Part shown: piece by piece, positions 15,836 through 32,447 of the stretch
Numbering within the stretch: the first letter of the stretch is position 1
Layout of the letters: each line of letters starts with the position of its first letter
Assembly: GCA_902628835.1 (NCBI GenBank)
Contig: CACOPD010000003.1
Coordinates: 22,053 to 86,052, forward strand
Source: an uncultured Alphaproteobacteria bacterium
GTDB lineage: Bacteria; Pseudomonadota; Alphaproteobacteria; HIMB59; GCA-002718135
Reading direction: 5' to 3'
Length of the DNA stretch: 64,000 nucleotides
Position numbers and translations under genes: made by a program
The notes under the pieces: generated by a model
Database searches by the model: none
Told to the model about the DNA's origin: nothing
What the model saw: the letters and a program-made list of their open reading frames with translations, nothing else

Positions 15836-16260
15836 TGATTAATATTTATACTGATGGTGCATGTTCTGGAAACCCAGGTATTGGTGGATGGGGTGTGGTA
15901 ATATTAGATAATGGTGAAGAAATTCAGTTAAACGGAGGCAATCATAATACGACAAATAACAAAATGGAGCTTACTGCAGCTATTAAAGCTTTAGAGTATT
16001 TTGAACAAAAAAAGGATTTAATTATCTATACGGATAGTAAATACGTAAAAGATGGAATTGAGTCATGGATAATAAATTGGAAACAAAATGGATGGAAAAC
16101 TTCAACAAAAAAACCTGTAAAAAATAAAGAAATGTGGATAGCACTAGATGATTTAATAAGAAAACATAATATAAACTGGAAATGGGTAAAGGGTCATGCT
16201 GGGCATAAATATAATGAAAAAGCTGATTATTTGGCAAGGCGCTTTATTGAAGAAAATTAA
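15835..16260 (+). CDS. rnhA: Ribonuclease HI.
   Basis: Contains IYTDGACSGNPGIGGWG, TNNKMELTAAI, IYTDSKY and WKWVKGHAGHxxNExAD. Confidence 0.95.
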   Translation: MINIYTDGACSGNPGIGGWGVVILDNGEEIQLNGGNHNTTNNKMELTAAIKALEYFEQKKDLIIYTDSKYVKDGIESWIINWKQNGWKTSTKKPVKNKEMWIALDDLIRKHNINWKWVKGHAGHKYNEKADYLARRFIEEN

Positions 16261-16816
16261 ATTATTTTTTATAATTACAAGTTTATTAATTTTTTCAAAT
16301 ATTTCTTTAGCTTCAGAAAAATGGATTTTAGATAGATCTATTTCATCAATTGAATTTGAATTACCTGTTCTTTTTGCAAAAAATGTTAAAGGTAAATTTA
16401 ATACAATAGAAGGATTTGTTGAAATTGATTTAGATAAGAAAGAAAATAATAAAGCAATATTTTCAGTTGCAATAGCTGATATTGAAATAAATTATAAAAA
16501 ATATAAAAATTTACTATTAGGTGAAATTTTTTTTGATGAAAAAAAATTTCCAATAGCTTTAGTTGATACAAGAAAATTTTCATACTCTGATGAAAAAGAA
16601 ATTGTAATTGATGTTGAATTCACAATAAAAGGAAAAAGTCAAATTATTCCACTAACAATTAAAATTACTCAATTAGCAGAAGAAGTAGTACAAATACAAA
16701 GTGATTTACAATTTTCAAGAACTGACTTCAAAATTGGAATAGGTAATTGGAAAAATACATCAATTTTAAAAGATAAAGTTAAAATTAAAACTAATTTATT
16801 TTTATTTAAAGAATAA
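16214..16816 (+). CDS. YceI-like periplasmic protein.
   Basis: A signal peptide (…KIKLFFIITSLLIFSNISLA/SEKW) followed by W.LD…S.I.F…GkF…G.v… typical of the YceI family. The start is ambiguous. Candidates are ATG 16214 or TTG 16247, which gives MKKIKLFF…; the track uses 16196. All candidates overlap the rnhA 3' end. Confidence 0.7.
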   Translation: MKKLIIWQGALLKKIKLFFIITSLLIFSNISLASEKWILDRSISSIEFELPVLFAKNVKGKFNTIEGFVEIDLDKKENNKAIFSVAIADIEINYKKYKNLLLGEIFFDEKKFPIALVDTRKFSYSDEKEIVIDVEFTIKGKSQIIPLTIKITQLAEEVVQIQSDLQFSRTDFKIGIGNWKNTSILKDKVKIKTNLFLFKE

Positions 16817-16818
16817 AA

Positions 16819-18108
16819 TTAAACGATGCCAGAAGAACTTCCTTTTGAAGATTTTCTGACTTTAGATTTATTTTGTTTATAGTTTAACGAACGATAGATA
16901 GAAATTGGATCTATAGCATTTGAGTTTTCATACCTAGCCATTGACACAATTGGGTTTACGTCAGTATTAAAAGCTGTTTTTAGTAATTGCATTGCTCCAG
17001 TTGTGTCATTTGCATCCTGTAATTCATTTAAATGGTCGTAGTCAACTAACAATGATTTTGTAAAGCATAATGCAATCTCATTAGAACTTAGAATTAAACT
17101 TTCTATCGGATCTGTAACGTTATGAGATTGATCAATCATATAAGATATCTCTTTCAATTTACCATTCTTATTAGCCAATGTTAATTCATTAAAAATTAAA
17201 AACAATTCAAATGGGTTTATTGATCCAGCATCAAGATCATCATCTCCAAATTTACTATCATTAAAATGAAAGCCGCCAAGTTTATTTAAATCAATTAATC
17301 TAGAAACAATCATCTCAATATTCGTATTTGGTAAATGATGACCTAAATCAACTAAACACATTGCTTTTTCTCCAAGTTCTTTTGCACAAATATAGCTTGT
17401 CCCCCAATCACTAATAACAGTTGAATAAAACGCTGGTTCATAAGGTTTGTGCTCAAGATATACTTTCCAATCTTCAGGTAAATTACTGTAAATTTTCTTC
17501 ATTGATTCAATATATCTCTCTAAAGATTTTGAAAAACTAATTTGTCCTGGAAAATTTCCTCCATCTCCAACCCATACCGTTAAACCTTTGGATCCAAGAG
17601 TCATGCCTGCTTCTATAGCTTCTTTATTTACTTGAATTGCTTTTTCTCTAACAGATTGATCAGCATTAGTTAAACTTCCATACTTAAAACTTAAGTTGTC
17701 TTCACCTTGATCTTGGAAAGTATTTGAATTAACGACATCATAACCTATTCCAAAACTATCTGAAAATTCTTTGAGTTCTTTAAAATCACTTACATTATCC
17801 CATGGAAAATGCGGGGATACTTTTTGTGTTATTCCCACTAAATCATTTATGACTGCACAATCTTCAATTTTTTCATAGATATTTTGTGGTTCACCAATTC
17901 CTGGAAATCTGGCAAAACGCGTACCTCCTGTACCTACCCCCCATGTGGGAACTGCCACTTGAAAATTTTTAATTTTATTTTTAATATCATTTATATTTAC
18001 TTTGTTTCTTTCTAATTTTTTTCTAAGATGATCAAAATCACTATTAAGATCAGATATTAATTTTAAATTATGATTATTTATTATTTCTTTATCAACAGCT
18101 TTAAACAT
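16819..18108 (-). CDS. rhaI: L-rhamnose isomerase, RhaI type (xylose-isomerase-like TIM barrel, Pseudomonas stutzeri / Rhizobium class).
   Basis: Near-continuous similarity to the P. stutzeri enzyme as I recall it: VAVPTWGVGTGGTRFARFPG.GEP, YGSL, LTVWVGDG.NFPGQ, EHK.YEPAFYSTV..DWGT, CLVDLGHH.PNTNIEMIV.RLI, LGGFHFNDSK.GDDDLDAGSI.P, MIDQSHNVTDPIESL. Confidence 0.9.
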   Translation of the reverse strand: MFKAVDKEIINNHNLKLISDLNSDFDHLRKKLERNKVNINDIKNKIKNFQVAVPTWGVGTGGTRFARFPGIGEPQNIYEKIEDCAVINDLVGITQKVSPHFPWDNVSDFKELKEFSDSFGIGYDVVNSNTFQDQGEDNLSFKYGSLTNADQSVREKAIQVNKEAIEAGMTLGSKGLTVWVGDGGNFPGQISFSKSLERYIESMKKIYSNLPEDWKVYLEHKPYEPAFYSTVISDWGTSYICAKELGEKAMCLVDLGHHLPNTNIEMIVSRLIDLNKLGGFHFNDSKFGDDDLDAGSINPFELFLIFNELTLANKNGKLKEISYMIDQSHNVTDPIESLILSSNEIALCFTKSLLVDYDHLNELQDANDTTGAMQLLKTAFNTDVNPIVSMARYENSNAIDPISIYRSLNYKQNKSKVRKSSKGSSSGIV

Positions 18109-18493
18109 TTATTCCCCATCCTAAAGAAGTCATAAAAGAGTTATACTCAGATGATGTATCAAGTCTAGATAATTGAGCAACAACATTAATATCACTTTTT
18201 AAAACGATCGAATATGGCTTTTCTCTTAATAATTTACTTCCTTGCACTTCAATTTTATCTAAACGAAGATGTAAACTTCTTCTTGCATCAACTTTAGTTT
18301 CATAATTTTCAATTGGTTCATCATTTTCATATAAAAAATCTATTTTAAGATTTGCAATTATTTGTGAGGTATTAACAATACACAAGGATTCATGTCCAAA
18401 TTGATCACCACTTTTAGAGGTTTTATATGGCTTGCCTTTAAGTGGAAGAAATGCGTCAGGAAATATCCATATTTTTTTTCCTAAGTCATTCAT
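18101..18493 (-). CDS. ASRT-family protein (homolog of the Anabaena sensory rhodopsin transducer and Thermotoga TM1070).
   Basis: GHESLCIVNTS, VDARRSLHLRLD and NVVAQLSRLDTS align with the ASRT motifs SHETVCILNAG, VPARRTKHVRFND and IVVQHTRLDSR (recalled from memory). At about 130 aa the length fits. The likely start is ATG 18493 (MNDLGKKIW…), giving an ATGAATGA overlap with the upstream permease stop. The track starts at 18517. Confidence 0.7.
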   Translation of the reverse strand: MNDLGKKIWIFPDAFLPLKGKPYKTSKSGDQFGHESLCIVNTSQIIANLKIDFLYENDEPIENYETKVDARRSLHLRLDKIEVQGSKLLREKPYSIVLKSDINVVAQLSRLDTSSEYNSFMTSLGWGINV

Positions 18494-19472
18494 TTTTGCT
18501 CCTAAAATATTTAACAAATGATGGAAAACCTATGCTCAATATTAATAAAAGTCCTGTAAAAATAATTATACCTACACCTGGTACATTGAGTAAACCAAGT
18601 CCAAAGGATAGCATGCCTAAAATAAAGATTGATATAACCACTCCTAGTATTGATCCAGATCCTCCATAAATATAAACACCACCTAAAACAACCATAGTGA
18701 TTATTTCAAGTTCCCATCCAAAAGCAATATTGGGTCTTACACTTGATAATCTACCTGAAAGAAATATAGCTGCAACTGCTGAAAAGAGTCCATTTAAAGT
18801 AAAAAGAATAAATGTATATCTATCAACATCTATTCCTGTGTATTGTGCAGAGTCTGGATTATTGCCAATAGAGTAAATTCTTTTTCCAATTATTGTTCTA
18901 TGTAAAATAAATGCAAATATTAATGACATTATTATAAAAGTTAAAAAGGCATAAGGGATGTAACCAAATAAATAATCACTACCCAGTGAAACTACGAATT
19001 TTGGAAATTTATTATAATATTGATCTTCAAGGAAAGAATAAGCTAAACCTCTAAACAGTGACATAGTTCCTATAGTGACAATTATTGATGGAATAGCAAA
19101 CCTGGTTATAATTAATCCATTAAATGCACCACATAATATTCCACTTAGTAATGTAAATGAAATTACTAGATAAGTATCAAAACCTACGCTTGTTGTATAT
19201 CCAAGTACACATGAGGACACGGCAATTATAGATGCAACAGATAAGTCAATTTGTCTTGCAATGATAACAAAGGTCATACTTAAAGCTATAATTGCTTTTT
19301 CGCTAAACAAAAAAGTACTATCAATCAAATTGTAAAGATCTAAAAAATAAGGTGAGATATTTGAATTAATTATAATTATAGAAAGAAAAACCATAAAAAG
19401 AATAAATTCTTTTTTGTAAAGAATATTAATTAATTTAAATGGTGGATTATCTGGAATTAAATTTTTCATCAT
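18486..19472 (-). CDS. rhaQ: Sugar ABC transporter permease (RhaQ-like, ribose/CUT2 type).
   Basis: Multi-pass membrane protein of the RbsC/branched type (IDLSVASI, GGxGSIxG). It sits after the first permease in a rha-type operon. Confidence 0.8.
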   Translation of the reverse strand: MMKNLIPDNPPFKLINILYKKEFILFMVFLSIIIINSNISPYFLDLYNLIDSTFLFSEKAIIALSMTFVIIARQIDLSVASIIAVSSCVLGYTTSVGFDTYLVISFTLLSGILCGAFNGLIITRFAIPSIIVTIGTMSLFRGLAYSFLEDQYYNKFPKFVVSLGSDYLFGYIPYAFLTFIIMSLIFAFILHRTIIGKRIYSIGNNPDSAQYTGIDVDRYTFILFTLNGLFSAVAAIFLSGRLSSVRPNIAFGWELEIITMVVLGGVYIYGGSGSILGVVISIFILGMLSFGLGLLNVPGVGIIIFTGLLLILSIGFPSFVKYFRSKNE

Positions 19473-20437
19473 TCTACCATAATTGTTTTTTCTTTTCTTT
19501 GTTCTGTCTTAGTATTGATGATTATAGCTATTAATATTATAGCTCCTGAAATAGCCAACTGCCAAAACTGAGATATATCTACAGCGGGTAATGCATTTCT
19601 AATAAATCCTATTAACAGAGCTCCAAGTGTACATCCAATTACTGTTCCCACACCACCCATGACACTTATCCCGCCAACAACACATGCAGAAATGACTGTT
19701 AATTCAAATCCTATTGCTATTTGAGTTGATGCAACTGAGTATCTTGCAACCCATAAATATCCACATAAGCCAGCAAAAAAACCTGATAAAGAATAAGCTA
19801 AAATAATATATTTGTTTTCGTTTATACCTATATATTTTGCTGCATCTGGGTTCCCACCAAGAGAATAAAGATTTCGTCCAAACCGGGTGTGATTTAATAA
19901 AATATACATCAATATAAATACTGCAACCGCTATCCAAAATAAAAAGGAAAGAGATAAAAATTTATAGTGAATTAAAGCAAGAAAATCTTCTGAGAATTCA
20001 GAGGAATATACTTGTTTACCATCACTTACAAAATAAATTAATCCCCTATAAATACTTAGTGTTCCAAGAGTTGTAACAATAAATGGAACCTTAAGAATAG
20101 CAATAGATACACCATTTAGAACTCCTAAAAAAGTTCCGATTGAACAAGAAAGTAAAATAAAAAAAATAACAGGTAATTCTGGATAAATTGTAGATAATAG
20201 AGATATTAGCATTCCTGATAAAGCTAAATTTGAAGCAACCGATAAATCGATTGCCCTTATTAAAATTACTAGCATTTGACTTAAAGCTAAAATAATTAAA
20301 ATTGAAGTATCAGTTAATACATCTGATAGACTAGATGGCTTTACAAAAAATGGGTTTGCTATGCCAACAACCACTACTCCAAAAACAATTATTGCAAATA
20401 AAATAAAATCTCTACTAGTTATAATTTTTTTGATCAT
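19469..20437 (-). CDS. rhaP: Sugar ABC transporter permease (RhaP-like, CUT2 type).
   Basis: Shows the same RbsC-like features (IDLSVASN, GGVGTVIG). It overlaps rhaQ by 4 nt and abuts the ATPase gene. Confidence 0.8.
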   Translation of the reverse strand: MIKKIITSRDFILFAIIVFGVVVVGIANPFFVKPSSLSDVLTDTSILIILALSQMLVILIRAIDLSVASNLALSGMLISLLSTIYPELPVIFFILLSCSIGTFLGVLNGVSIAILKVPFIVTTLGTLSIYRGLIYFVSDGKQVYSSEFSEDFLALIHYKFLSLSFLFWIAVAVFILMYILLNHTRFGRNLYSLGGNPDAAKYIGINENKYIILAYSLSGFFAGLCGYLWVARYSVASTQIAIGFELTVISACVVGGISVMGGVGTVIGCTLGALLIGFIRNALPAVDISQFWQLAISGAIILIAIIINTKTEQRKEKTIMVE

Positions 20438-21916
20438 TTATTCTCCACTTGCTAGCTTAACAATTTCTTCTGAAGTTGTATTTGATACATCTAATATATT
20501 TTTTACTAAACCTTTATACATAACAACTACACGATCACACATACCAAGAATTTCTGTTAATTCAGATGAAATCATTATGATAGACATTCCAGTGTCAACA
20601 AGTTCACCCATAAATTCATGAACTGCTGATTTAGATTTTACGTCTATACCTTTTGTAGGTTCATCTAAAATTAATATTTCAGGTTTAGTAGATAACCATT
20701 TTGCAATAACTGTCTTCTGCTGATTACCACCTGATAAACTTTGTGCTAATTGACTCCAATAAGAAACTTTTATATTTAATTTATCTTGCAGTTCCTCAGC
20801 GTTTCTTATTTCTTTTAATTGATTAATTATCAAATAATCAGAATTTTTATCCATAACTGCCATGTTAATATTATCTTTAACGGACATTAGACCTGTCATT
20901 CCTAAATTTTGTCTTTCTTCAGAAAGGTAAACTATTCCATTTTGAATAGCATCATTTGGCTTTCTTATTTTTAATTTTTTTCCTTTAAAAAAAACTTCTC
21001 CTTCATCATATTTATTTATTCCAAAAATAGTTTTCATTATTTCTGTTCTTCCAGATCCAACTAGTCCATAAAAACCAAGAATCTCTTTTTTTCTTAAATT
21101 AAAATTGATATTTTTAAATTGTGTTTTCTTATATAAATTTTTTACATTAAATATTTCTTGCTCAATTTTAACTTGTTTTTTTGGAAAGATTTGATCAATT
21201 TCTCTACCAACCATATATGTTACTAATTTATCTTTATTAGTATTTGTAATTAAATCAGTATTAATAAACTCTCCATCTCTTAACACTGTAAACTCATCAC
21301 AGACTTCCATAATTTCATCAAGTTTATGTGATATAAAAATAATTGACTTATTTTGTTTTTTTAAATTTCTTATTATTGAATACAATTCGTCAATTTCTTT
21401 TTGAGAAAGAGAAGCTGTTGGCTCATCCATAATCACAATATCAGCATCATGAATTAAAGATCTTGAAATTTGAACAATATGTCTTTGCGCAATACTAAGA
21501 TCTTTAATTTTCTCATTTGGCCTAATATCAGCTTCTAAATTTCCAAGAAGTTCTTTTGTTTTTCTTTCCATTTGTTGCCAATCAACTAGGTTATTTGGTT
21601 TTGTAATATGATTTCCAATAAAAATATTTTCCGTTACGCTCAATTCATCGAACATAACAGACTCTTGATGAATTGCAGATATGCCTAAGGATAATGATTC
21701 TAATGGATTAGTTATGTTATGCTCAATATTATTTAAAAAAATTTTACCTTCATCAGGTTGATAAACTCCACATAGTATTTTTACTAATGTTGACTTTCCA
21801 GCACCGTTTTCTCCAAGAAGAGCATGTATGCTATTGTCTTTAAGTTTAAAATCAACTTTTTGAAGAGCCTTTATTCCAGGAAAAAATTTAGATATTTTTT
21901 TTAACTCAAGTTTCAT
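20438..21916 (-). CDS. rhaT: Sugar ABC transporter ATP-binding protein with two fused nucleotide-binding domains.
   Basis: Walker A GENGAGKST with LSIAQRHIV…IMDEPTA, then a second half with GLVGSGRTE, LSGGNQQK and ILDEPTKGID. Confidence 0.9.
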   Translation of the reverse strand: MKLELKKISKFFPGIKALQKVDFKLKDNSIHALLGENGAGKSTLVKILCGVYQPDEGKIFLNNIEHNITNPLESLSLGISAIHQESVMFDELSVTENIFIGNHITKPNNLVDWQQMERKTKELLGNLEADIRPNEKIKDLSIAQRHIVQISRSLIHDADIVIMDEPTASLSQKEIDELYSIIRNLKKQNKSIIFISHKLDEIMEVCDEFTVLRDGEFINTDLITNTNKDKLVTYMVGREIDQIFPKKQVKIEQEIFNVKNLYKKTQFKNINFNLRKKEILGFYGLVGSGRTEIMKTIFGINKYDEGEVFFKGKKLKIRKPNDAIQNGIVYLSEERQNLGMTGLMSVKDNINMAVMDKNSDYLIINQLKEIRNAEELQDKLNIKVSYWSQLAQSLSGGNQQKTVIAKWLSTKPEILILDEPTKGIDVKSKSAVHEFMGELVDTGMSIIMISSELTEILGMCDRVVVMYKGLVKNILDVSNTTSEEIVKLASGE

Positions 21917-21921
21917 AATTT

Positions 21922-21953
21922 AACATATGACCATTTTAAAATGGTCATATGTT
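21922..21953 (-). promoter_or_regulatory. Perfect 32-nt palindrome (intercistronic RNA hairpin) between the binding-protein gene and the ATPase gene.
   Basis: AACATATGACCATTTT/AAAATGGTCATATGTT. It begins 11 nt after the rhaS stop and ends 5 nt before the rhaT ATG at 21916. Confidence 0.6.
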
Positions 21954-21964
21954 TTAAGATTTAT

Positions 21965-22951
21965 TTAGAATATTTCTGCAAATTTATCGATATTTGACGC
22001 ATCAAAAATAAATGGATCAGCCATAGCCGCAGAATTACCTGCCCCTATACAAATCTCACCCATTCTACCTGTAGGAATACATTCGCCTTCTTGACCTTTG
22101 AATGCACCGCTAGCTATTTGATGTGATAAGTAAACAGCTGAGTATCCTAAATCAATAGGATTCCAAATTCCAAATTGGATTGCAGCACCACTTTTTACAT
22201 GAGCTTTCATTTCACTAGGGAGTCCAAGACCTGTAACAAATACCTTGCCAACTAAGCCCTGATCTTCTACTGCCTTTGCAGCTGCAACAATACCTACTGA
22301 AGTTGGAGCTATAATACCTTTTAAGTTTGGATGTTTTTTAAATAGACCCAAAGCTTCTTGATAACTTTTATCAAATAAGTCATCACCATAAACAGTATCA
22401 ACCCATTTCATTTTTGAGTATTCAGGTTTAGCAAATTCTTTTTTCATTTCTTCAATCCAAGCATTTTGATTTGTTGCTTGACTTGTTGCACTTAGAATAG
22501 CAAATTCACCTTCATCACCCATAGAATTTTTCATCCACTTAATGTTAGATGATCCAATTAATGCAGTATTTGAAGGATCTAAATTCATCACTCTTCCATC
22601 TTCACCAATACCAGAATCCCAAGAAATTACTGTAATACCTCTTTGCATTGCTTTTTTCCCTATTGGAACAAGAGCATCTCTGTCATTTGCAGAAATTGCA
22701 ATTGCATCAACCTTTTGAGCAATTAAAGAATTTATTACTTCAATTTGAGCTTCAGCTGTAGTTGTAGCTGGGCCTGTGTAAATTACTTCTATACCTCCAA
22801 TTTCTTTTGCAGCTTCTTCGCCACCTTCAGCAGCAGCTTCAAAGAAACCAATACCAAGTCCTTTAACCACAAGTGCAATGCGCATATCATCTGCATATGT
22901 GTTAAAGGAAATTAAAAGAAATGAAGATAAAACTAATAGTATTTTTTTCAT
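21965..22951 (-). CDS. rhaS: Periplasmic rhamnose-type (RhaS/LsrB-like) sugar-binding protein.
   Basis: Signal peptide MKKILLVLSSFLLISFNTYA and a PBP type I fold (ALVVKGLGIGFF…A..GG.EAAKE.G…TGP). AGGAGGAATAAAATG precedes ATG 22951, so the track's longer start at 22996 is unlikely. Confidence 0.85.
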   Translation of the reverse strand: MKKILLVLSSFLLISFNTYADDMRIALVVKGLGIGFFEAAAEGGEEAAKEIGGIEVIYTGPATTTAEAQIEVINSLIAQKVDAIAISANDRDALVPIGKKAMQRGITVISWDSGIGEDGRVMNLDPSNTALIGSSNIKWMKNSMGDEGEFAILSATSQATNQNAWIEEMKKEFAKPEYSKMKWVDTVYGDDLFDKSYQEALGLFKKHPNLKGIIAPTSVGIVAAAKAVEDQGLVGKVFVTGLGLPSEMKAHVKSGAAIQFGIWNPIDLGYSAVYLSHQIASGAFKGQEGECIPTGRMGEICIGAGNSAAMADPFIFDASNIDKFAEIF

Positions 22952-23075
22952 TTTATTCCTCCTATAAATAATAATCATAATAGAAATGAATAACATTAAA
23001 TAATCAAGGAAAAAATATAATTAACTTTGATTTCTTAATCAATTAAATGTAAATCATTGCATAAGAGCATAATTT

Positions 23076-25163
23076 ATGAAAAATAGATATCAAATACCTG
23101 TTAAAAATAATTGGAATAAAAATTTTAATAAACTTAGTAAACTTCAACAATTAATTATCAGATCAAATTTATTAGGTAGAGATTTGAAAATAACTAATTT
23201 TGGAGGTGGAAATACCTCTTCTAAAATTAATCTTAAAGATCCCTTAGATAAAGTAAGTCAAAATATTCTCTATGTTAAGGGTTCGGGTGGAGATCTTGGG
23301 TCAATTAAAGAAGATGGATTTGCAAGTCTCTATATGGATAAGCTAAATAATTTAAAAAATATTTACAAAGGATTTAACTTTGAAGATGAAATGGTTGGTT
23401 ATTATCCTATGTGTACTTTTAACAATAATCCAAGAGCAGCCAGCATAGATACTCCTCTTCATGCTTATGTTCCATATCCAGAAGTTGATCACACGCATCC
23501 TGATTCAATAATAGCATTGGCAACAATGAAGAATGGAAGAGATATTGTAAATAAAGTTTATGAAAATAAATTAGGATGGTTAAATTGGCAACGTCCAGGT
23601 TTTGACCTTGGTCTTAAAATGGAAAAACTAATAAAAAGTAATAAAAATATTATAGGAATTGTTTTAGGGCACCATGGTTTATTTACTTGGGCTAATACAA
23701 GTGAGCAATGTTATAAAAATTCAATTGACATAATTAAAAAAGCTCAGATTTATCTCAATGACTCAATAAAAAAATATTCGTTTGGCAAATCTATTTATAA
23801 AATAAAATCTAATAGTGAATTCGAAAATAAATTAATTTCAACTTTGAGAGGACAATTATCTAAAGAAAATTTTAAAATATTACATATAGATAAATCTAAG
23901 GTAACATTAGAATTTGTAAATTCACAAAATATGAAAAAAGTATCGGCAATAGGTACATCATGTCCTGATCATTTTTTGAGGACAAAAAGATTGCCTTTAG
24001 TTCTTCCTTCATTAAGTGATTTAATGAAAAAAGAAAATGAATTGAAAAAAAATATAGAAAAATATCTTAAAAAATACAAAGATGAATATGGCAAATATTA
24101 TAAAAGAAATAAAAATAAAAATTCTCCAAATTTAAGAGACCCTTATCCTGTAATTGTTCTAATACCTGAATATGGAATGATGTCATTTGCTAAAAATAAA
24201 TCTACTGCTAGAATTTCTAGTGAATTTTTCTGTAATGCAATAAATGTTATGAAGGGTGCAGAAGGTGTAAGTAAATATACAGGTTTAACAGAAAAGGAAG
24301 CCTTTAGAATAGAATACTGGGAACTTGAAGAGGCAAAATTAAGAAGAATGCCTCCTGAAAAAGAATTAGCGGGAAAAGTTGCGTTAATTACAGGTGCCGC
24401 TGGTGGAATAGGTTCTGCAACTGCAAATAAGTTTTTAAAAGAGGGATGTTGTGTAATCTTAACTGATATTGACAGTAAAGCGCTTCAACAAACTAAAAAG
24501 AGTTTTCAAAATAAATTTGGTACTGATGTTGTTAAGTCTATTGTAATGGATGTAACTAAAGAAAATGATGTAAAAAAAGCAGTTGATGAGAGTGTTAATA
24601 AATTTGGTGGAATTGATATTTTAGTCGCGAATGCTGGTTTTGCTTCAGCCGCGCCATTTGACAAAACTTCATCTAAATTGTGGGATAAAAATATGGCTGT
24701 ACTTTCCAAAGGTTGTTTCCTTATTAGTCGGGAAGTATATTCACAAATGATGAGACAGAATATTGGTGGCTCTATAATATTTATTTCTAGCAAAAATAGC
24801 TTAAGTGCCTCCAAGGGAGCATCTGCGTATAGTGTCGCAAAAAGCTCTTTACTTCATCTATCTAGATCAATAGCCTTGGAAGGTGCAGAACATAAAATTA
24901 GATCAAATATTATAAATCCTGATGCCGTAATACAAAACTCAAGAATTTGGAGTGGGGATTGGAAAAAACAACGTGCAGCAGGTAATAATATTCCAATAAA
25001 TAAAGTTGAAGAATTTTATAAGAATAGAAGTCTGTTAAAAGTTAGTGTTTTGCCAGAGGACATAGCTGAAGGTATTTATTTTTTTGCAAGTTCCAAATCT
25101 AAAAAGTCTACTGGTAATATAATTAATATTGATGGAGGGAACATAACATCTTTCACTAGATGA
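23076..25163 (+). CDS. rhaD: Bifunctional rhamnulose-1-phosphate aldolase / short-chain dehydrogenase (rhizobial RhaD / Bacillus YuxG type).
   Basis: 695 aa. The N-terminal class II aldolase/adducin-like domain has NFGGGNTS…KGSGGDLG and HT.HPD. The C-terminal SDR domain has ALITGAAGGIGSA, NAG and YSVAKSS (YxxxK). Confidence 0.9.
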   Translation: MKNRYQIPVKNNWNKNFNKLSKLQQLIIRSNLLGRDLKITNFGGGNTSSKINLKDPLDKVSQNILYVKGSGGDLGSIKEDGFASLYMDKLNNLKNIYKGFNFEDEMVGYYPMCTFNNNPRAASIDTPLHAYVPYPEVDHTHPDSIIALATMKNGRDIVNKVYENKLGWLNWQRPGFDLGLKMEKLIKSNKNIIGIVLGHHGLFTWANTSEQCYKNSIDIIKKAQIYLNDSIKKYSFGKSIYKIKSNSEFENKLISTLRGQLSKENFKILHIDKSKVTLEFVNSQNMKKVSAIGTSCPDHFLRTKRLPLVLPSLSDLMKKENELKKNIEKYLKKYKDEYGKYYKRNKNKNSPNLRDPYPVIVLIPEYGMMSFAKNKSTARISSEFFCNAINVMKGAEGVSKYTGLTEKEAFRIEYWELEEAKLRRMPPEKELAGKVALITGAAGGIGSATANKFLKEGCCVILTDIDSKALQQTKKSFQNKFGTDVVKSIVMDVTKENDVKKAVDESVNKFGGIDILVANAGFASAAPFDKTSSKLWDKNMAVLSKGCFLISREVYSQMMRQNIGGSIIFISSKNSLSASKGASAYSVAKSSLLHLSRSIALEGAEHKIRSNIINPDAVIQNSRIWSGDWKKQRAAGNNIPINKVEEFYKNRSLLKVSVLPEDIAEGIYFFASSKSKKSTGNIINIDGGNITSFTR

Positions 25164-26518
25164 TTAAAAAACAAACAAATATAATCTTAGATATTGGTAA
25201 AACAAATGTCAAACTTGTCTTAATAAGCCTACAGGGAAAAATAATAAAAGAAATTAGGACAAGACAAACATTAAAAAAATATAAAAATAAAATTATATAT
25301 TTAAATTCACAAAAAATTTTTGATTGGCTTATAGTAAATTTAAAAAGATTAACTGCAAATTATAAAATTTATAAGTTTGTTTGTGCAACACACGGTGCAA
25401 CAATTGCATTCATAGATAAAGATAATAAAGAAATTATTGCGAGTACTGATTATGAGTATTCTTATGATAAATTTATTAAAGAATTTAAAAAAATAGCACC
25501 AAGTTTCCATACCTCATTAACACCTCACTTAGAAGTAGGATTAAATACTGGACAACAAATATATTACTTAAATAGAATGTTTCCTGAAGTAATTAAAAGA
25601 ACTAAATTTATTTTATCCTATCCACAATACATCTCTTGGAAACTTTCAGGTAATTTCTCAAGTGAGATTTCTTACATTGGATGTCATAGTTTTCTATGGA
25701 ACTTTAATAAGAACACATACTCTTCACTTGTAAAAAAATTAAAAATTTATGATAAATTTCCTAAAATTCAAAGAGCGTGGAAAAGTATTGGTTATTTCAA
25801 AATTAATGATAGCAAAATAAGCATCTTAAATGGAATACATGATAGCAATGCTTCGTATTTGTATTTTAAAAATTCAAAACTCAAAAATTTCACTCTAGTT
25901 TCAACTGGAACTTGGTACATAATTTTTAATCAACAAACCAAATTGAAAAAATTAAATCCAAAATTAGATATGCTGTCGAACATTGATGTTTTTGGTAATC
26001 ATGTGCCAACAATGCGGTTTATGGGTGGAAGAGAATATGATGTTCTTTGTAAATCATTAAAAATAAAAAATAAAACATCAGCTAAAATAAGTGAAGAAGA
26101 TTTAATTAATAATCTAATTTATCCTAGTTTTGCAAGTGCTGGGCCTTTTAAACTTAATAAAACAATTAAAAAAATAAAACTATCTAACAATCAAAAATAT
26201 TCTTTAATTTGTATATATATGGCTTTTACATTAAATTTTTGTCTTGATTATATGGAATCATCAGCTGATATAATTTTAGATGGTCCAGTTACAAAAAATA
26301 ATTACATAATGAAAATTGTAGCAAATTTAAGAAATACTCAAAAAATCTTTAAAAATAAAAAAGAAGTAGGGACAAGCCTAGGTGCAAGTTTATTATTTAA
26401 TATAAATAAGAAAAGTAATATTGATTTAAGAAAAATTAATTCAATTAATGATCTAGATTATAAATATATATATTCAATTTGGTTGAAAAATTTAAAAAAG
26501 AAAAAATTAATTAATTAA
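25160..26518 (+). CDS. rhaK: Carbohydrate kinase (FGGY-related, RhaK-like rhamnulose/rhamnose kinase).
   Basis: N-terminal ILDIGKTNVKLVL (ASKHA phosphate-1 motif) and STGTW. It overlaps rhaD by 4 nt. The assignment rests mainly on context and size. Confidence 0.6.
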   Translation: MIKKQTNIILDIGKTNVKLVLISLQGKIIKEIRTRQTLKKYKNKIIYLNSQKIFDWLIVNLKRLTANYKIYKFVCATHGATIAFIDKDNKEIIASTDYEYSYDKFIKEFKKIAPSFHTSLTPHLEVGLNTGQQIYYLNRMFPEVIKRTKFILSYPQYISWKLSGNFSSEISYIGCHSFLWNFNKNTYSSLVKKLKIYDKFPKIQRAWKSIGYFKINDSKISILNGIHDSNASYLYFKNSKLKNFTLVSTGTWYIIFNQQTKLKKLNPKLDMLSNIDVFGNHVPTMRFMGGREYDVLCKSLKIKNKTSAKISEEDLINNLIYPSFASAGPFKLNKTIKKIKLSNNQKYSLICIYMAFTLNFCLDYMESSADIILDGPVTKNNYIMKIVANLRNTQKIFKNKKEVGTSLGASLLFNINKKSNIDLRKINSINDLDYKYIYSIWLKNLKKKKLIN

Positions 26519-28136
26519 TATTAGTTTCACTTAAAAAATCACCACATCTTAAACCTAGCATCATTGCTGGTGCAGATGTATTGCCTGAATTAATATTTGG
26601 CATTGCTGATAAATCACAAACTCTTAAATTTTCAATACCTCTTACTCTTAATTTAGAATCTAATACTGACATTTTATCATTATCAGCTCCCATTTTAGCC
26701 GTACCAGATGGATGATAATTTGTTCTTACAAATCGTCTACAATGTTTTTCTAGATTTTCATCATTTAAATTTTCAGTATTTGGAACAATTATTTTTTTTA
26801 CTTTTTTTGATAATGGTCCATTTGTAAGAGCCTGTAAAAAAAATCGTTGTCCCGCCATCATCATTCTTAAATCATCTTCATGTTTTAATAAATTTAATTC
26901 AATTTCTGGATTATCTTTAAAATTAGATGATTTTAGTTTTACATAACCTCTTGATTTTGGTTTTGTCATTACAGTTGTAATTGACATTCCGTAATCATCA
27001 TCAATAACACCAATAGTATCTGAATTCATATAAATACTTGGAACAAAAAAAGCTTGTATATATGCTAAATCATCACTGTTTATAGGATTAACAAATGCTC
27101 CAGCTTCAACTCCAGTCGAATTTACTCTGCCTGTTCCAAATAAGAGAAACTCAATGCCATTTTTTAACATTCTCCAACCTTCACCTTGTTTGTAATAACC
27201 ATATTTGCCATTAGCGGATGCAATTAAAGGACATTCAGGATGATCCATTAAGTTTTTACCAACTCCTGGAAGATTATTTTTGCATTTTATAGACAGTATT
27301 TCTAATTCTTCTTCATTTCCGATTCCAGATAACATTAATATTTTTGGCGTAATAAATGAACCAGCGGCTAATATTACTTCTTTATTAGCAAATACTTTTT
27401 CTTCTTCACCACTAGAGTTTTCAATAATCACTCCAATAGCTTTATTGTTTTCAATTATAATTTTTTTCACTTTTGTTTTTAGTAATAAATTGAGTAAAGG
27501 ATTATTGTTCTGCTTCTCTATAAAAGCGTATGCAGCTGATGATCTTTTTCCTTTACGATTCATAAATTGATATAGACCAACACCTTTTTGTTGCTGACCG
27601 TTAAAATCATCAGTTTTACTTACGCCAAGAGAAGCAACGGATTCGATAAAATCATATGACAATTGATCAACATGCGATGAATCGGAAACGTTTAAATTGC
27701 CTTTTTTACTATGATATTCATTTTCAAGACGAGAATTATTTTCCATTTCTTTAAAATATGGAAGTACTGTTTCCCAATCCCACTTAACATTATCATTGTT
27801 GACTCTGAGTATTTCATTCCATTCATTATAATCCTCTGCCCTACCTCTCATATAAACTTGAGCATTAATTGAAGTTCCTCCTCCTAAAACATTACCCTGA
27901 GGTATAATATTAACTCTATTGTTTAAATGTTTTTGAGGATTAGTTTTGTGATAAGTTGCATACTTAGAATCATTAACTAATTTAAAAAAACCTGCGGGTA
28001 CATCAAGTAAAAAATTATGATGAGAGTAGCCTGCCTCAATAAGTACAACTGACTTATTGGAGTTTAAAAGTTTATGTGTCAGAGCGCAGCCTGAAGCTCC
28101 ACCGCCTATCACTATATAATCAGAATATTTCTCCAT
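26511..28136 (-). CDS. GMC-family FAD oxidoreductase (choline/alcohol/sugar dehydrogenase-like), copy 1.
   Basis: Contains DYIVIGGGASGC, GGTSINAQVYMRG, HPSGTAKMG and RVCDLSAMPNINSGNTSAPAMMLG. Confidence 0.9.
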   Translation of the reverse strand: MEKYSDYIVIGGGASGCALTHKLLNSNKSVVLIEAGYSHHNFLLDVPAGFFKLVNDSKYATYHKTNPQKHLNNRVNIIPQGNVLGGGTSINAQVYMRGRAEDYNEWNEILRVNNDNVKWDWETVLPYFKEMENNSRLENEYHSKKGNLNVSDSSHVDQLSYDFIESVASLGVSKTDDFNGQQQKGVGLYQFMNRKGKRSSAAYAFIEKQNNNPLLNLLLKTKVKKIIIENNKAIGVIIENSSGEEEKVFANKEVILAAGSFITPKILMLSGIGNEEELEILSIKCKNNLPGVGKNLMDHPECPLIASANGKYGYYKQGEGWRMLKNGIEFLLFGTGRVNSTGVEAGAFVNPINSDDLAYIQAFFVPSIYMNSDTIGVIDDDYGMSITTVMTKPKSRGYVKLKSSNFKDNPEIELNLLKHEDDLRMMMAGQRFFLQALTNGPLSKKVKKIIVPNTENLNDENLEKHCRRFVRTNYHPSGTAKMGADNDKMSVLDSKLRVRGIENLRVCDLSAMPNINSGNTSAPAMMLGLRCGDFLSETNIN

Positions 28137-28139
28137 TAA

Positions 28140-28904
28140 TTATCTTGTGGTATAACCTCCATCTACAACTAACACTTCACCAGTCACATAGCTTGAGGCT
28201 GGGCTACATAAAAAAAGTGCTGCAGCTCCAATTTCTTCTGTTTCGGCCATTCTACCTAAAGGTGTCATCTTATCCCAAGTAGGATACCAGTGTTCATTTT
28301 CTTTTGGAAGAGAAGTCATTTCAGTTCTAAAATAACCAGGAGCTATAGCATTAACACGAATATTTTGATCTGCAAAATCACTGGCTAAACTTTTAGTAAT
28401 CATGTGAACTGCTGCTTTAGAAGCATTATAAGCAACTTGTGGTTGAGGAATGTTAGAAACAAGTCCTGAAATTGAACCAATATTTAATATAACTCCTTCA
28501 CCTTGTTTTTTCATAGGTGTAATTGCTGATCTACACATTCTAAAAAGAGCATCAACATTAATGTTCATTATTTTATCTAAGAGATCATCATTAAATTCTT
28601 CCATTTCACCATGTTGTGCTACACCTGCATTATTTACTAAAATATCAATCGACCCATGTTTGTCTAAAGTATAATCTACTATTTTTTGTGGAACTTGCTT
28701 ATCAGTTATGTCTGCTTCAAAAAAAGAGACGTTATAATTTGCTTTTTGTAAACTTTCTAAACCTCCAAATTTATCTGTCCTACTGGTTACAACAAGTTTT
28801 GCTCCAGCTTCTCCTAAAGCATGTGCTATTGATAAACCAATACCTCTAGTACCACCTGTGACAACTGCTATTTTATCTGTTACTTTGAATCGTTCTAATA
28901 TCAT
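28140..28904 (-). CDS. Short-chain dehydrogenase/reductase.
   Basis: Contains VVTGGTRGIG, NNAG and YNASKAA (YxxxK). The likely start is ATG 28904 (MILERFKV…), preceded by GGGGGAG. The track's start at 28964 adds an implausible 20-aa extension. Confidence 0.9.
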   Translation of the reverse strand: MILERFKVTDKIAVVTGGTRGIGLSIAHALGEAGAKLVVTSRTDKFGGLESLQKANYNVSFFEADITDKQVPQKIVDYTLDKHGSIDILVNNAGVAQHGEMEEFNDDLLDKIMNINVDALFRMCRSAITPMKKQGEGVILNIGSISGLVSNIPQPQVAYNASKAAVHMITKSLASDFADQNIRVNAIAPGYFRTEMTSLPKENEHWYPTWDKMTPLGRMAETEEIGAAALFLCSPASSYVTGEVLVVDGGYTTR

Positions 28905-29073
28905 CACTCCCCCATTTTTGATATTATAGTTATAATATCTCCAAAATTTAAGAAAAAACAACAACTTAATAGTTCAAAAAGTTTTAAAAAAAATAGTTGA
29001 TAAAAATCTTTATCTGCATAATGTAAAATTGTTTAAAACATTTGTTTTATAACTATTCATAATAGGAGGAAAT

Positions 29074-30498
29074 ATGAAAAAATTACTAATTACCCTTCTA
29101 GTTTCAACTTTTTCATTCTCAGCTATGGCTGACGGTCATGCTGAATGGTGGAAAAAAGCTGGTGCCCCTTATGCGGGAACTGTTCTTCAAGGTGTTGCTG
29201 AGAACACACCTCCAGGTCAATTTGCTGGAGAAGTTTTAGCAAAAGAATTTGAAGCATTAACTGGCATTAAAGTACAACTAGAAAATACTTCTTGGGATTC
29301 TATGTATGATAAAGCAATCAAAGATATGGAAGCTAATTCTGGTATCTATGATTTTGTATATATTGAACAAGATATAGTTTATGACTACTTAAATAGAGAT
29401 TTCTTGGTTAATATAACAGAAGGTCTTGCTAATAACCCTGATCTTCAAGCTCCTGGTGTAAGCCTTGATGACTTCACAACTTTCATTGATTATTTTAAAG
29501 ATGGATCTGGTGATGTTTTTGGTGTTCCTATGGAAGCTTTCATAAAAGTTTATCTATATAGAAAAGATCTATTTGAAGCTGCTGATGCAAAAGCTGCATT
29601 TAGAGCACAATATGGATATGGTTTATCTCCTGCAACATCATTTGATCAGTACAGAGATAACGCAGAATTCTTTACACATTACTGTGCTGATAATGGTATG
29701 GAATGTTGGGGAACAACTGTTCAGGGACATACTGGACATCCAGCTTCTACTTATGAGTTCCTAGAGTCCATTGGACCATCTTTTGGTTTATATAACTGGG
29801 GTGTTAATATGGATAGCTATCAGTCATGTGTAGAAAATGGTGGTCAATTAAATGGTGGAAGAGCAAAAGCTGCTCTAAACTTCTGGACACAACTTCTACC
29901 TTTTGCTCCACCTGAAGCACTTCAAAGTACTTGGAGTGAAGTTGGTGCATCTTTTGCTGCAGGACGAGCTGCACAAGGTTGGGTATATGGTGAAAACGCT
30001 GCATGGATTGCAACTGACTCTGAAAAATCAGCAGTTGTAGGAAATGTTGGTGTTATGTTACCTCCAACAGCACCTGGTGTTATGACTCAAGCTGCATCAG
30101 GAAATGGTTACATTGGCTATTTTGATGGTGGTGCTTATGGTATTCCACACTCATCAAAAAATATTGAAGCTACAATGCTTTGGCTTCAATTCATTGCTCA
30201 AAATGAAGTTCAAGCTGATTGGGCAATTGCTGGTGGACGTATTACTCATAAAGCAACATATGCTGATCCAAAAGTAATGGCTGTTGACGAACAAGCTGAC
30301 GGATACTTTACTTTAATGAGAGATACTGGCTTCTTATATGCTGGTGCGCCTCCATTCCCATTCCACGGAGCGGGAAGAGCTGCAATAGACCCTTTCATTT
30401 ATAAAGCTCTTGCAGGAGAAATGACTCCGGAAGAAGCTTTAGATGGAGCATGTCAAGCTCTTGATAAAGTAATGAGTGATCTTGGTTATCAAGGTTAA
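29074..30498 (+). CDS. Extracellular solute-binding protein (family 1, sugar/polyol ABC transporter).
   Basis: Signal peptide [19 protein letters not shown] and strong AGGAGGA 7 nt upstream. It is followed by MalF/MalG-type permease genes. Its composition (rich in A/G/W/Y, poor in K/N/I) differs from its neighbours. Confidence 0.85.
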
Positions 30499-30511
30499 TT
30501 AATCTTTAAAT

Positions 30512-30537
30512 GGGAGGCTCTATAGCCTCCCTTTTTT
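30512..30537 (+). terminator. Intrinsic terminator/attenuator between the binding-protein gene and the first permease gene.
   Basis: GGGAGGCT-CTAT-AGCCTCCC followed by T6. The permease ATG (30538) immediately follows the T-tract. Confidence 0.75.
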
Positions 30538-31419
30538 ATGTTTTCTAATAATCGAACAGGTTGGTTACTTTTATCACCAACAATTCTTATACTTTTTTTA
30601 GTTGGACTAGTTCCTTTCTTTTATGTTTTATATGTTGGTTTTTTTAAATGGAATCCTCTTGCTGTTGATCCTTCAATGCAATTTGAGGGCTTTGGATACA
30701 ATTACAGACAGCTGATATTTGATGAAGTTTTTTTGAGTTCAATTTGGCGTTCAATTAGATTTGCTGTTGTCACATTATTTTTTGAATTAAGTTTAGGATT
30801 TTTGTTAGCTTTATCTTTGCTTAGTTCTTTTCCTTTAAAATCTTTTTTCAGAGGTGTGCATACTTTGCCTCTAGTAATTGCACCGATTGTTGTTGGTTCA
30901 ATATTTAAGTTGTTTAGTGTTCAAGGATTAGGACCTTTACCTCATTTTTTAAAAGATTTTTTTGGATATACGTTAAATTATGGATTAAATGCTGATCAAG
31001 CTTTTTGGATGATTGTTATAATGGATATTTGGCATTGGACTCCGTTTGTTACTTTAACCTTACTTGCTGGGCTAAGTGCTCTCCCTCAAGATCCTTATGA
31101 GTCAGCCAAAATTGATGGAGCAAATAATTTCCAAATATTTATCTATATAACTATCCCTATGATGGTGCCAGTTTTGATAGTTGTTATTTTTATTAGATTA
31201 ATGGACTCACTTAAGATTGTTGATGAAGTATGGATGCTCACTGGAGGTGGACCAGGTTATGCAACGAGATTTACAGGCATTCATATATGGAAAGAAGTTT
31301 TTGAAAAAAGATTTTATGGTTTTGGATCAGCTATGTCGATTTTATATTTATATATAACAATTGTCATTTGTTGGCTGCTTTATAGTGTAATGGTCTCGAG
31401 GGGGAAAAGTGAAGATTAG
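30538..31419 (+). CDS. ABC transporter permease (MalF/UgpA type).
   Basis: Six-TM protein with an EAA-like loop ([22 protein letters not shown]). Confidence 0.9.
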
Positions 31420-32263
31420 AAAAGTTATTGGAAAAATTAGCACAACAATTCTTTGGACTATATTAACATTAATTACCTTATTCCCAATTTATTGGATGGT
31501 TTTAGTCTCAACAAGAACACCGGTTGAATTATTTGGTAAGCCAGATTTAAGCCCTACATTTTTTCAAAAAATACATTGGAAAAACTTTACTAAACCTTTT
31601 ATTGATGGCATTTATTCTGATTATCTTTTTAATTCAATTATAGTAGCTACTTCAAATGCTGCCTTAGTAACTGTATTAGCATTAATGGCTACTTATGCTC
31701 TATCTAGATTTAAGTTACCTGGATCAGAAAGTATATTTTTTTGGACTATGACAAATAGAATGGCTCCACCTGCTGCATTTATGTTGCCTTTGTTTTTATT
31801 GTTCTCTACTGTTTTTAAATTTGGCGATTCTACTCTATTTGATACAAAAATTGGATTAATATTATTATACTGTGTCTTTAATTTACCTTTTGCTATTTGG
31901 CTTTTAAAAGGAATTATTGATGGCATTCCAAAAGAATTGGATGAAGCCATGATAGTTGATGGTGCCAATTTATTTACAGTACTTTGGAAGTTAATAATAC
32001 CTCTTGCAGCTCCTGGAATTGCTGTAACATCACTACTCAGTTTTTTATTCGCATGGAATGAATATTTATTAGCTTCAACCTTAACAAGTGTTTATGCGAG
32101 AACGATCCCGACTGGTTTATCTGAGTTTGTAACCACAACAGGAACAAACTGGGGAACTATGGCAGCTGTAGCTTTAGTGTCAATGATACCAGCTTTAATC
32201 TTTTTATTTTTAGTACAGAGGTATATTGTTGCCGGATTAACTTTTGGAGCTGTTAAAGGATAA
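31409..32263 (+). CDS. ABC transporter permease (MalG/UgpE type).
   Basis: EAA loop [22 protein letters not shown]. It overlaps the upstream permease gene by 11 nt. Confidence 0.9.
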
Positions 32264-32264
32264 T

Positions 32265-32444
32265 ATGAAAAAGAAAGGTTTCATTCCTATTGATACAAAC
32301 TGGTTTGATAGACTATTTATTGGTGTAATTAGTTTCGTTGCTTTACAATTATTTTGGATGAGATTTTTAGAAAATATTTTATCAATTAATTTTGCTATTG
32401 GAATTGGTATAGCTTGGATAATATTTGTTATTTGGAAAGGATAG
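32265..32444 (+). CDS. Small two-TM integral membrane protein (DUF2160-like accessory of sugar ABC operons).
   Basis: MKKKGFIPIDTNWFDRLFIGVISFVALQLFWMRF…IGIGIAWIIFVIWKG. ATG 32265 lies 1 nt after the permease stop. The family assignment is recalled from memory and is tentative. Confidence 0.5.
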   Translation: MKKKGFIPIDTNWFDRLFIGVISFVALQLFWMRFLENILSINFAIGIGIAWIIFVIWKG

Positions 32445-32447
32445 AAA

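Follow-up and report, generated by a model that had tools for sequence, protein, structure and literature searches.

The sensory rhodopsin transducer of Anabaena (ASRT) has given its name to a protein family (PF07100, DUF1362) whose members, as noted by De Souza, Iyer and Aravind in 2009 (PMC2739507), also occur without rhodopsins. These authors described gene neighborhoods in which ASRT homologs accompany an isomerase, an aldolase and a kinase (including one in Thermotoga) or a monosaccharide ATP-binding cassette (ABC) transporter, and they proposed that the proteins are intracellular sugar-binding sensors. The Thermotoga maritima member, TM1070, was listed by Rodionov et al. in 2013 (PMC3750489, Tables S1-S3) as 'rhaM, predicted L-rhamnose mutarotase', belonging to the RhaR regulon and the operon rhaMADBC and induced 35-fold on rhamnose, and the role assigned by Rodionova et al. 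in the same year (PMC3870299, Table S1) reads 'RhaM2, predicted L-rhamnose mutarotase', with RhaM being present in four Thermotoga species. Here we compare with these systems an ASRT gene found in a 64,000-nucleotide stretch of DNA from an uncultured alphaproteobacterium of the HIMB59 lineage (contig CACOPD010000003.1, positions 22,053 to 86,052; referred to below as the window), where it is a member of an operon for L-rhamnose uptake and catabolism. As both the sugar-binding and the mutarotase idea have already been published, the window instance is mainly confirmatory. Its value lies in a sharper comparative case for the predictions of 2009 and 2013, namely a slot in common with the mutarotase RhaM, the lack of a shared locus, the co-occurrence with the repressor RhaR and the independence of partner type, and in the flagging of a misleading database name.

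The gene lies on the minus strand, with its ATG start codon at 18493-18491 and its TAA stop codon at 18103-18101, and the translation of 18493 to 18101 yields a product of 130 amino acids that begins MNDLGKKIWIFPDAF and ends GWGINV (the strand had not been given in the preliminary description of this DNA). An alternative TTG start at 18517 (138 amino acids) was dropped, as the homologs begin at the ATG and a Shine-Dalgarno sequence AGGAG precedes that codon by 5 nt. The order of the minus-strand operon is rhaS-T-P-Q-ASRT-rhaI, and rhaD(EW) and rhaK are transcribed divergently from it. The overlaps with the permease stop and the rhaI start that had been reported before both measure 8 nt in the sequence, i.e. 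ATGAATGA for the rhaQ stop and the ASRT start (18486-18493) and ATGTTTAA for the ASRT stop and the rhaI start (18101-18108), and both are kept in about 24 of 26 related marine loci. It is well supported that the ASRT gene is an integral, translationally coupled member of the operon.

The preliminary description had recognized the family by three signature blocks, which are indeed found as GHESLCIVN (residues 33-41), ARRSLHLRLD (70-79) and VVAQLSRLD (104-112), and had proposed a search with the Pfam ASRT profile. That search gave a strong match over the full length of the model (110.5 bits, the gathering score being 25; E 6.4e-32; positions 2-118 of the 119 in the profile), no NCBIfam model matches the protein, and the identification of the reading frame as a genuine ASRT-family gene is well supported. 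The best matches among the sequences of the Protein Data Bank (PDB) are TM1070 (1NC7, E 4e-21) and the Anabaena ASRT (2II7, E 1e-11). An AlphaFold2 monomer model, based on an alignment of 37 homologs, is all-beta and confident (pLDDT 92.8), and a Foldseek search with this model retrieved 1NC7 as its best match (TM score 0.81-0.92, root-mean-square deviation 1.5 Å), followed by 2II7-2IIA. The protein is accordingly modelled as a cofactor-free eight-stranded beta-sandwich of about 14 kDa, and by analogy with TM1070 it would be tetrameric; tetramers are reported for both 1NC7 and 2II7 (PMC2739507). The family as a whole is small, as 1.84 billion representative proteins yield 229 clusters of it at 50% identity. 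Its longer members hold only tandem ASRT repeats, unannotated N-terminal extensions and, in one case, a partial histidine-phosphatase fragment, and no fusion to RhaM, to a helix-turn-helix domain or to an enzyme was seen among them. Two ASRT domains per chain occur in some proteins (P0198, P0094 and P0110) and tandem ASRT genes in an Abditibacteriota metagenome-assembled genome (L064:9998-10351 and about 10787), an arrangement that fits the dimer/tetramer architecture of the family.

In the case of TM1070 the resemblance extends from the protein to its context. The window protein is about 38-44% identical to TM1070, belongs to the same Pfam family and carries the same HESLCI.N pocket motif, and each of the two genes belongs to a rhamnose cluster, in which a RhaI-type isomerase gene comes directly downstream of it. 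The differences comprise a 7-residue insertion after the first strand (KGKPYKT), a 5-residue insertion at 83-87, the position of the window gene at the end of a rhizobial-type RhaSTPQ operon, the replacement of RhaD and RhaB by RhaEW and RhaK, and the host, which is a streamlined marine alphaproteobacterium, probably AEGEAN-169/HIMB59-like. Like the TM1070 orthologs to which SEED/RegPrecise gives the role 'RhaM2', the window gene is a TM1070 homolog within a rhamnose catabolic cluster; the genome would then be expected to lack a canonical RhaM, and none is present in the 64 kb of the window. The gene is the TM1070/'RhaM2' ortholog of the AEGEAN-169/HIMB59-like marine Alphaproteobacteria. The family namesake is more distant: the Anabaena ASRT has the same fold (TM score about 0.65-0.9) and shares H34, C38, N41, H75, R77, Q107, R110 and D112 with the window protein at an overall identity of 26%, whereas its reported interactions with rhodopsin and DNA find no support in the window, where the gene does not adjoin a rhodopsin gene. 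Within the ASRAH superfamily of De Souza et al., which comprises beta-sandwiches predicted to bind sugars, the window protein falls in family 1, that of the stand-alone intracellular proteins with links to isomerase-aldolase-kinase genes and to neighborhoods of monosaccharide ABC transporters.

A degenerate pattern, scanned against one genome for each GTDB species, gave 73 ASRT loci of at most 20 kb each, and we searched these for rha genes within 10 kb of ASRT using seeds from the window and from E. coli. Such genes were found in 36 of the 73 loci. Marine Alphaproteobacteria account for 22 of these, of which 20 display the order S-T-P-Q-ASRT(-I) that is also seen in the window and two (L021, L022) encode ASRT-rhaI together with rhaK, without an ABC transporter. 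Six loci are from Deinococcota (T-P-Q-S-ASRT-RhaI-EW-RhaB or RhaI...EW-RhaB-ASRT), three are from Thermotogota (with RhaI and RhaB, and in L048 also RhaD), and four Clostridia loci and one Salipaludibacillus (Bacillales) locus encode the E. coli-type RhaA, an unrelated isomerase. The association thus recurs in at least five phylum- or class-level lineages. Its partners vary: the isomerase can be RhaI or RhaA, the kinase RhaB or RhaK, the aldolase RhaD or RhaEW, and the ABC transporter can be present or absent (it is absent from loci that include L021, L022, L048, L052-54 and L057), which implies that the linkage follows the substrate and not one particular partner protein. The suggestion, made in the preliminary description, that TM1070 also adjoins a rhaI-type gene agrees with the published table (TM1071; PMC3750489, Table S1), and the cross-phylum conservation it had made conditional on this is borne out. 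No rhodopsin partner occurs among the recurrent neighbors in the rha-linked loci, and the window gene itself is flanked by rhaQ and rhaI. The comparison supports the carbohydrate-related, non-photosensory role that had been suggested for the family: the role of the window protein probably concerns sugar and not light.

The known L-rhamnose mutarotase RhaM (YiiL, RhaU; PF05336) has a ferredoxin-like alpha+beta fold that forms a dimeric barrel. Like the window protein it is small (104-111 amino acids), cofactor-free and cytoplasmic, but there is no sequence similarity between the two and the window protein is an all-beta sandwich, so that a shared function, if any, would be a matter of analogy and not of homology. 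The two do share a position. In the annotated loci of Rhizobium leguminosarum and Qingshengfaniella (L075, L077) the order is rhaR-S-T-P-Q-rhaM-K, with rhaD-I divergent and RhaM overlapping its neighbors, and RhaM directly follows rhaQ in eight metagenomic loci as well. The window ASRT gene occupies the same slot after rhaQ, that of RhaM/RhaU in Rhizobium and Rhodobacterales, which confirms that it stands where the mutarotase is usually encoded, as had been claimed. With respect to the rhizobial-type locus (rhaRSTPQUK / rhaDI) the window has RhaS, T, P, Q, I, D(EW) and K in divergent operons, whereas the gene order differs in that rhaI follows ASRT and rhaK follows rhaD.

Neither the window nor any of the 73 ASRT loci matched a hidden Markov model (HMM) built from four RhaM seeds, even when matches with E<=10 were admitted, and the window ASRT protein itself has no Pfam or NCBIfam RhaM match. 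A metagenome scan centered on RhaI yielded 80 loci, of which 4 contained ASRT, 14 RhaM and none both. Among 62 fairly complete rha loci ASRT alone was present in 24, RhaM alone in 15, neither in 23 and both in none (Fisher p = 2e-4), a value that is descriptive because the loci are not phylogenetically independent: when the isomerases are collapsed at 70% identity, 12 clusters are left, the test loses power and the significance disappears (p = 0.55). The anti-correlation between ASRT and rhaM/rhaU that had been anticipated thus stands in so far as the two were never encountered in the same locus, and is not significant across the clusters. One of the 12 clusters holds both ASRT and RhaM loci: Deinococcus sp. 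AJ005 has a RhaM locus, and its RhaI shares 69-71% identity with the RhaI proteins encoded in the ASRT loci of Meiothermus and Deinococcales. Within these Deinococcota, RhaM heads the transporter operon on the AJ005 plasmid (L076), and ASRT follows rhaS or rhaB in L024, L025, L027 and L028.

The residues that are invariant throughout the family are, in window numbering, G5, W9, D13, H34, E35, N41, R72, R77, D79, Y94, Q107, R110 and D112, while C38 and H75 are common to the Anabaena ASRT, the Firmicutes members and every rhamnose-linked member, and are replaced by Met and by Thr/Ser, respectively, in the clade of the Planctomycetes-Verrucomicrobia-Chlamydiae (PVC) and Chloroflexi. De Souza et al. 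(PMC2739507) described a pocket motif SHEshChhN, of which the His and the Cys contact 1,2-ethanediol in 1NC7, and besides it a Trp of strand 1 and a turn Asn. In the window protein the motif reads GHESLCIVN, with the first S replaced by G, a change that 15 of 23 marine relatives share; both W9 and N41 are present, and by analogy the pocket would be lined by His34 and Cys38, His75 being conserved as well in the rhamnose-linked subfamily. Conserved His, Cys and further charged residues in a pocket would suit the opening of the sugar ring by acid-base chemistry, and would equally suit simple sugar binding, and we found no set of residues by which the rhamnose-linked members could be told apart from the remaining family members with His/Cys/His.

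On this basis we consider a replacement of RhaM by the non-homologous ASRT protein, with a mutarotase-like catalytic role, the leading explanation of the window gene, and hold it with slightly less than even confidence. We favor it because ASRT and RhaM have the same slot and do not share a locus, because one is swapped for the other in Deinococcota, and because the linkage is indifferent to the partners and RhaR co-occurs freely with it. The reading coincides with the prediction behind the SEED/RegPrecise role 'RhaM2'. The window gene would be an expressed ASRT member whose translation is coupled to that of the rhamnose ABC permease and of RhaI, and its product would bind the L-rhamnose brought in by RhaSTPQ and speed up the interconversion of the alpha and beta anomers by acid-base catalysis, in place of RhaM/RhaU, so that RhaI would be supplied with its preferred anomer. 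We infer the binding of rhamnose, and the mutarotase chemistry more weakly.

Several observations count against this explanation, besides the loss of significance upon clustering. The number of independent lineages is small, and about half of the ASRT loci lack detectable rha genes. Non-rha Firmicutes loci and the Anabaena ASRT, which lies beside a rhodopsin gene, retain identical His/Cys/His residues, and binding and looping of DNA are reported for the Anabaena protein (PMC8660804). In two complete marine metagenomic loci (L082:4205-9970 and L083:5516-11287), whose RhaI proteins are 62-63% identical to that of the window, rhaS-T-P-Q is followed by rhaI with neither ASRT nor RhaM, and hence the slot can be empty and the step dispensable. 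The search for RhaM spanned the window and loci of at most 20 kb, and RhaM could be encoded elsewhere in the ASRT genomes. Apart from family entries the Foldseek search with the window model gave nothing below E 0.02, and no known mutarotase fold; the family entries in the PDB are 1NC7 and 2II7-2IIA only, none of which has a sugar bound. In the literature we found no activity test or sugar-binding biochemistry for any member of the family: searches joining ASRT to rhamnose returned unrelated matches only, and those joining 'sensory rhodopsin transducer' to mutarotase returned none. A paper on the fucose lectin CML1 that mentions TM1070 was set aside, as it concerns a weak and generic beta-sandwich similarity only.

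Outside the rhamnose loci other themes emerge. A gene for an M24 peptidase/creatinase-like protein lies beside ASRT in 14 loci, in 10 of them directly upstream. These loci are from PVC bacteria, Chloroflexota, Planctomycetota and some Firmicutes, and those from PVC bacteria also hold a fucose/arabinose-isomerase-like protein, deacetylases and the glycoside hydrolase GH123. In Oscillospiraceae-type Clostridia the order is cpsB-ASRT-pduL, with capsule genes (Wzz, a tyrosine-kinase ATPase and CpsB) on one side. PduL, a phosphate propanoyltransferase, belongs to the utilization of 1,2-propanediol, downstream of the cleavage of rhamnose or fucose. A class II aldolase adjoins ASRT in L037 and L045 and a GH106 rhamnosidase in L041, and the neighbors are plainly housekeeping genes in L044 and L049. 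In a crude neighbor-joining tree of the ASRT proteins the rhamnose-linked members are not monophyletic and mostly follow the organismal groups, with a separate PVC/Chloroflexi clade that contains most of the M24-linked loci. Consequently a clean 'RhaM2 orthogroup' is not demonstrated. The M24 context is not among the neighborhoods that De Souza et al. (2009) describe in their text.

The proposal of De Souza et al., in which the protein is a sugar-sensing accessory that binds rhamnose or an intermediate and, without being catalytic, modulates a neighboring enzyme or transporter allosterically by contact, is the main rival; in our view it is rather unlikely, while still carrying appreciable weight. 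It draws on the pocket and the diverse sugar-operon contexts described by its authors, on the fact that the core residues stay the same while the family appears in several contexts unrelated to each other, and on the physical interaction of the Anabaena ASRT with its rhodopsin, which is cited in PMC2739507. The differing partners across the rha loci are, however, hard to square with one conserved protein-protein interface, and a sensor would leave both the common slot and the fact that ASRT and RhaM do not share loci unexplained. Thus, where the earlier work pointed to a sensor or regulator, the RhaM slot, the exclusivity and the co-occurrence with RhaR lean towards an enzyme. If the ligand were a downstream intermediate such as L-rhamnulose or L-lactaldehyde instead of rhamnose, the protein could be another small enzyme or a carrier. 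This we deem improbable: some non-rha relatives do adjoin the class II aldolase or, in L031-36, PduL, i.e. steps after the cleavage of deoxy-sugars, and the pocket of 1NC7 held a small diol, but in most rha loci it is the isomerase that ASRT adjoins and the complementary pattern is specifically with RhaM.

That the protein regulates the rha operon by binding DNA, as might be supposed from the DNA binding and looping reported for the Anabaena ASRT, is quite improbable too. What invites it is that no DeoR-type gene was detected in the window, where ASRT might stand in for RhaR, while one is encoded in each of the closest relatives (L002, L078 and L081). Yet the two occur together in at least ten loci (L002, L017, L023-25, L027-28, L048, L078 and L081) and in T. 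maritima (TM1069/TM1070), and ASRT is therefore not a substitute for the repressor; moreover, neither a helix-turn-helix nor another DNA-binding domain or fusion was found, and the identity to the Anabaena protein is just 26%. Lastly, the protein could be a coupling subunit of the RhaSTPQ importer that hands over the substrate or gates its uptake, an option that had been raised in the preliminary description. Rhamnose transport in Rhizobium is known to depend on the kinase RhaK, the translational coupling to rhaQ is seen in the window and in about 24 relatives, and ASRT follows rhaS in the Meiothermus loci. We nevertheless hold it to be very improbable, because the linkage with rha genes persists without an ABC transporter: ASRT accompanies catabolic genes with no RhaSTPQ-type transporter nearby in L021, L022, L026-28, L048, L052-54 and L057, and T. 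maritima uses a different, oligosaccharide ABC system.

Extended from the window gene to the family, the replacement of RhaM would mean that PF07100 is an uncharacterized structural class of cofactor-free sugar anomerases, beta-sandwich tetramers with a His/Cys(/His) pocket that displaced RhaM several times independently in rhamnose operons, a generalization that we put forward tentatively and consider rather less than evenly probable. If it holds, 'sensory rhodopsin transducer' is a misnomer spread by annotation pipelines, and the Anabaena ASRT is a sugar-handling protein that became secondarily attached to a rhodopsin, which would reframe the literature on it. A non-homologous mutarotase would likewise extend the range of mutarotase types by a new fold and correct the pathway reconstructions for abundant marine bacteria of the AEGEAN-169/HIMB59 type. 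In any case the name, which public pipelines give to the window gene as well, is misleading for a gene in a rhamnose operon without an adjacent rhodopsin gene.

The features of the locus are collected in Table 1. The window RhaI is 53% identical to the annotated rhaI product of Qingshengfaniella. The mechanically called rhaS frame begins 15 codons ahead of a typical signal peptide (MKKILLVLSSFLL...), and the protein itself probably begins at the internal MKKILLV, near 22951. The rha locus (16819-26518) is flanked by housekeeping genes (YceI, RNase H, IspH) on one side and by a sugar/polyol island (26511-37952) on the other. A scan for promoters and terminators over 16-27 kb was uninformative: 70 promoter-like sites would be expected in DNA as AT-rich as this and 63 were seen, and within the rha operon the scan showed no terminator.

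Table 1. Features of the window, and groups of ASRT loci and matches from other genomes (positions refer to the window unless a locus or accession is given)
Feature	Position	Strand	Evidence or remark
ASRT-family (PF07100) gene, 130 aa, TM1070 ortholog ('RhaM2')	18101..18493	-	Pfam, 1NC7 match, AlphaFold2, Foldseek
Shine-Dalgarno AGGAG, 5 nt 5' of the ASRT ATG, within the rhaQ 3' end	18499..18503	-	sequence reading
rhaI, rhizobial-type L-rhamnose isomerase	16819..18108	-	TIGR02629, 570 bits, best match, below the cut-off of 647
rhaQ-type ABC permease	18486..19472	-	PF02653, E 1e-37
rhaP-type ABC permease	19469..20437	-	PF02653, E 2e-39
rhaT-type sugar ABC ATPase, two ABC domains	20438..21916	-	PF00005, E 1.6e-53, two stretches
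rhaS, rhamnose ABC substrate-binding protein	21965..22996	-	TIGR02637, 442.9 bits, above the cut-off of 342
Divergent intergenic region, 79 bp, rhaS/rhaD(EW); presumed shared control region	22997..23075	.	coordinates
rhaD/rhaEW, bifunctional rhamnulose-1-phosphate aldolase and short-chain dehydrogenase	23076..25163	+	NF006189, 962 bits, above the cut-off of 634
rhaK-type FGGY sugar kinase	25160..26518	+	PF21546 and PF00370; syntenic with the FGGY kinase of rhizobial rha loci
GMC oxidoreductases (two)	26511-28136, 34886-36484		
Short-chain dehydrogenase/reductase (SDR)	28140-28964		
CUT1-type ABC binding protein and two permeases	29074-32263		
Zn-dependent alcohol dehydrogenase	32448-33491		
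Mannitol-dehydrogenase-family enzyme	33478-34899		
Weakly RhaB/FGGY-kinase-like open reading frame	36468-37952		23 bits
M24-linked ASRT loci	L042, L056, L059, L061-L068, L070-L072 (e.g. L064:6485-7654, L059:8705-9979)		
Capsule/PduL ASRT loci	L031-L036, L046, L050 (e.g. L035:9067-10981)		PduL, then GGGtGRT protein
Distant ASRT plasmid matches	H31-H70 (e.g. S. meliloti pSymB CP050512.1:566091-566444)		

The genomes most closely related to the window were obtained from single cells and metagenomes and belong to uncultured marine Alphaproteobacteria; one of them is a HIMB59 metagenome-assembled genome. Getz et al. 2023 (PMC10308909) name a rhamnose ABC transporter as one of the features by which AEGEAN-169/HIMB59 differs from SAR11. 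A DeoR-type RhaR is encoded in the relatives L002, L017, L078 and L081; in the closest of them its gene lies convergently, just downstream of rhaI (L002:5321-6067, L078:6312-7058 and L081:10274-11023), and the matching site in the window holds a YceI-like gene (16196-16816). No DeoR HMM match that could represent RhaR occurs anywhere in the 64 kb.

The label 'sensory rhodopsin transducer' is found in NCBI records of distant ASRT homologs (28-30% identical), for instance from Sinorhizobium, Nitrobacter and Deinococcus, and appears to have been propagated from the family name alone. Of the 79 plasmid matches to ASRT, 59 are from Sinorhizobium megaplasmids.

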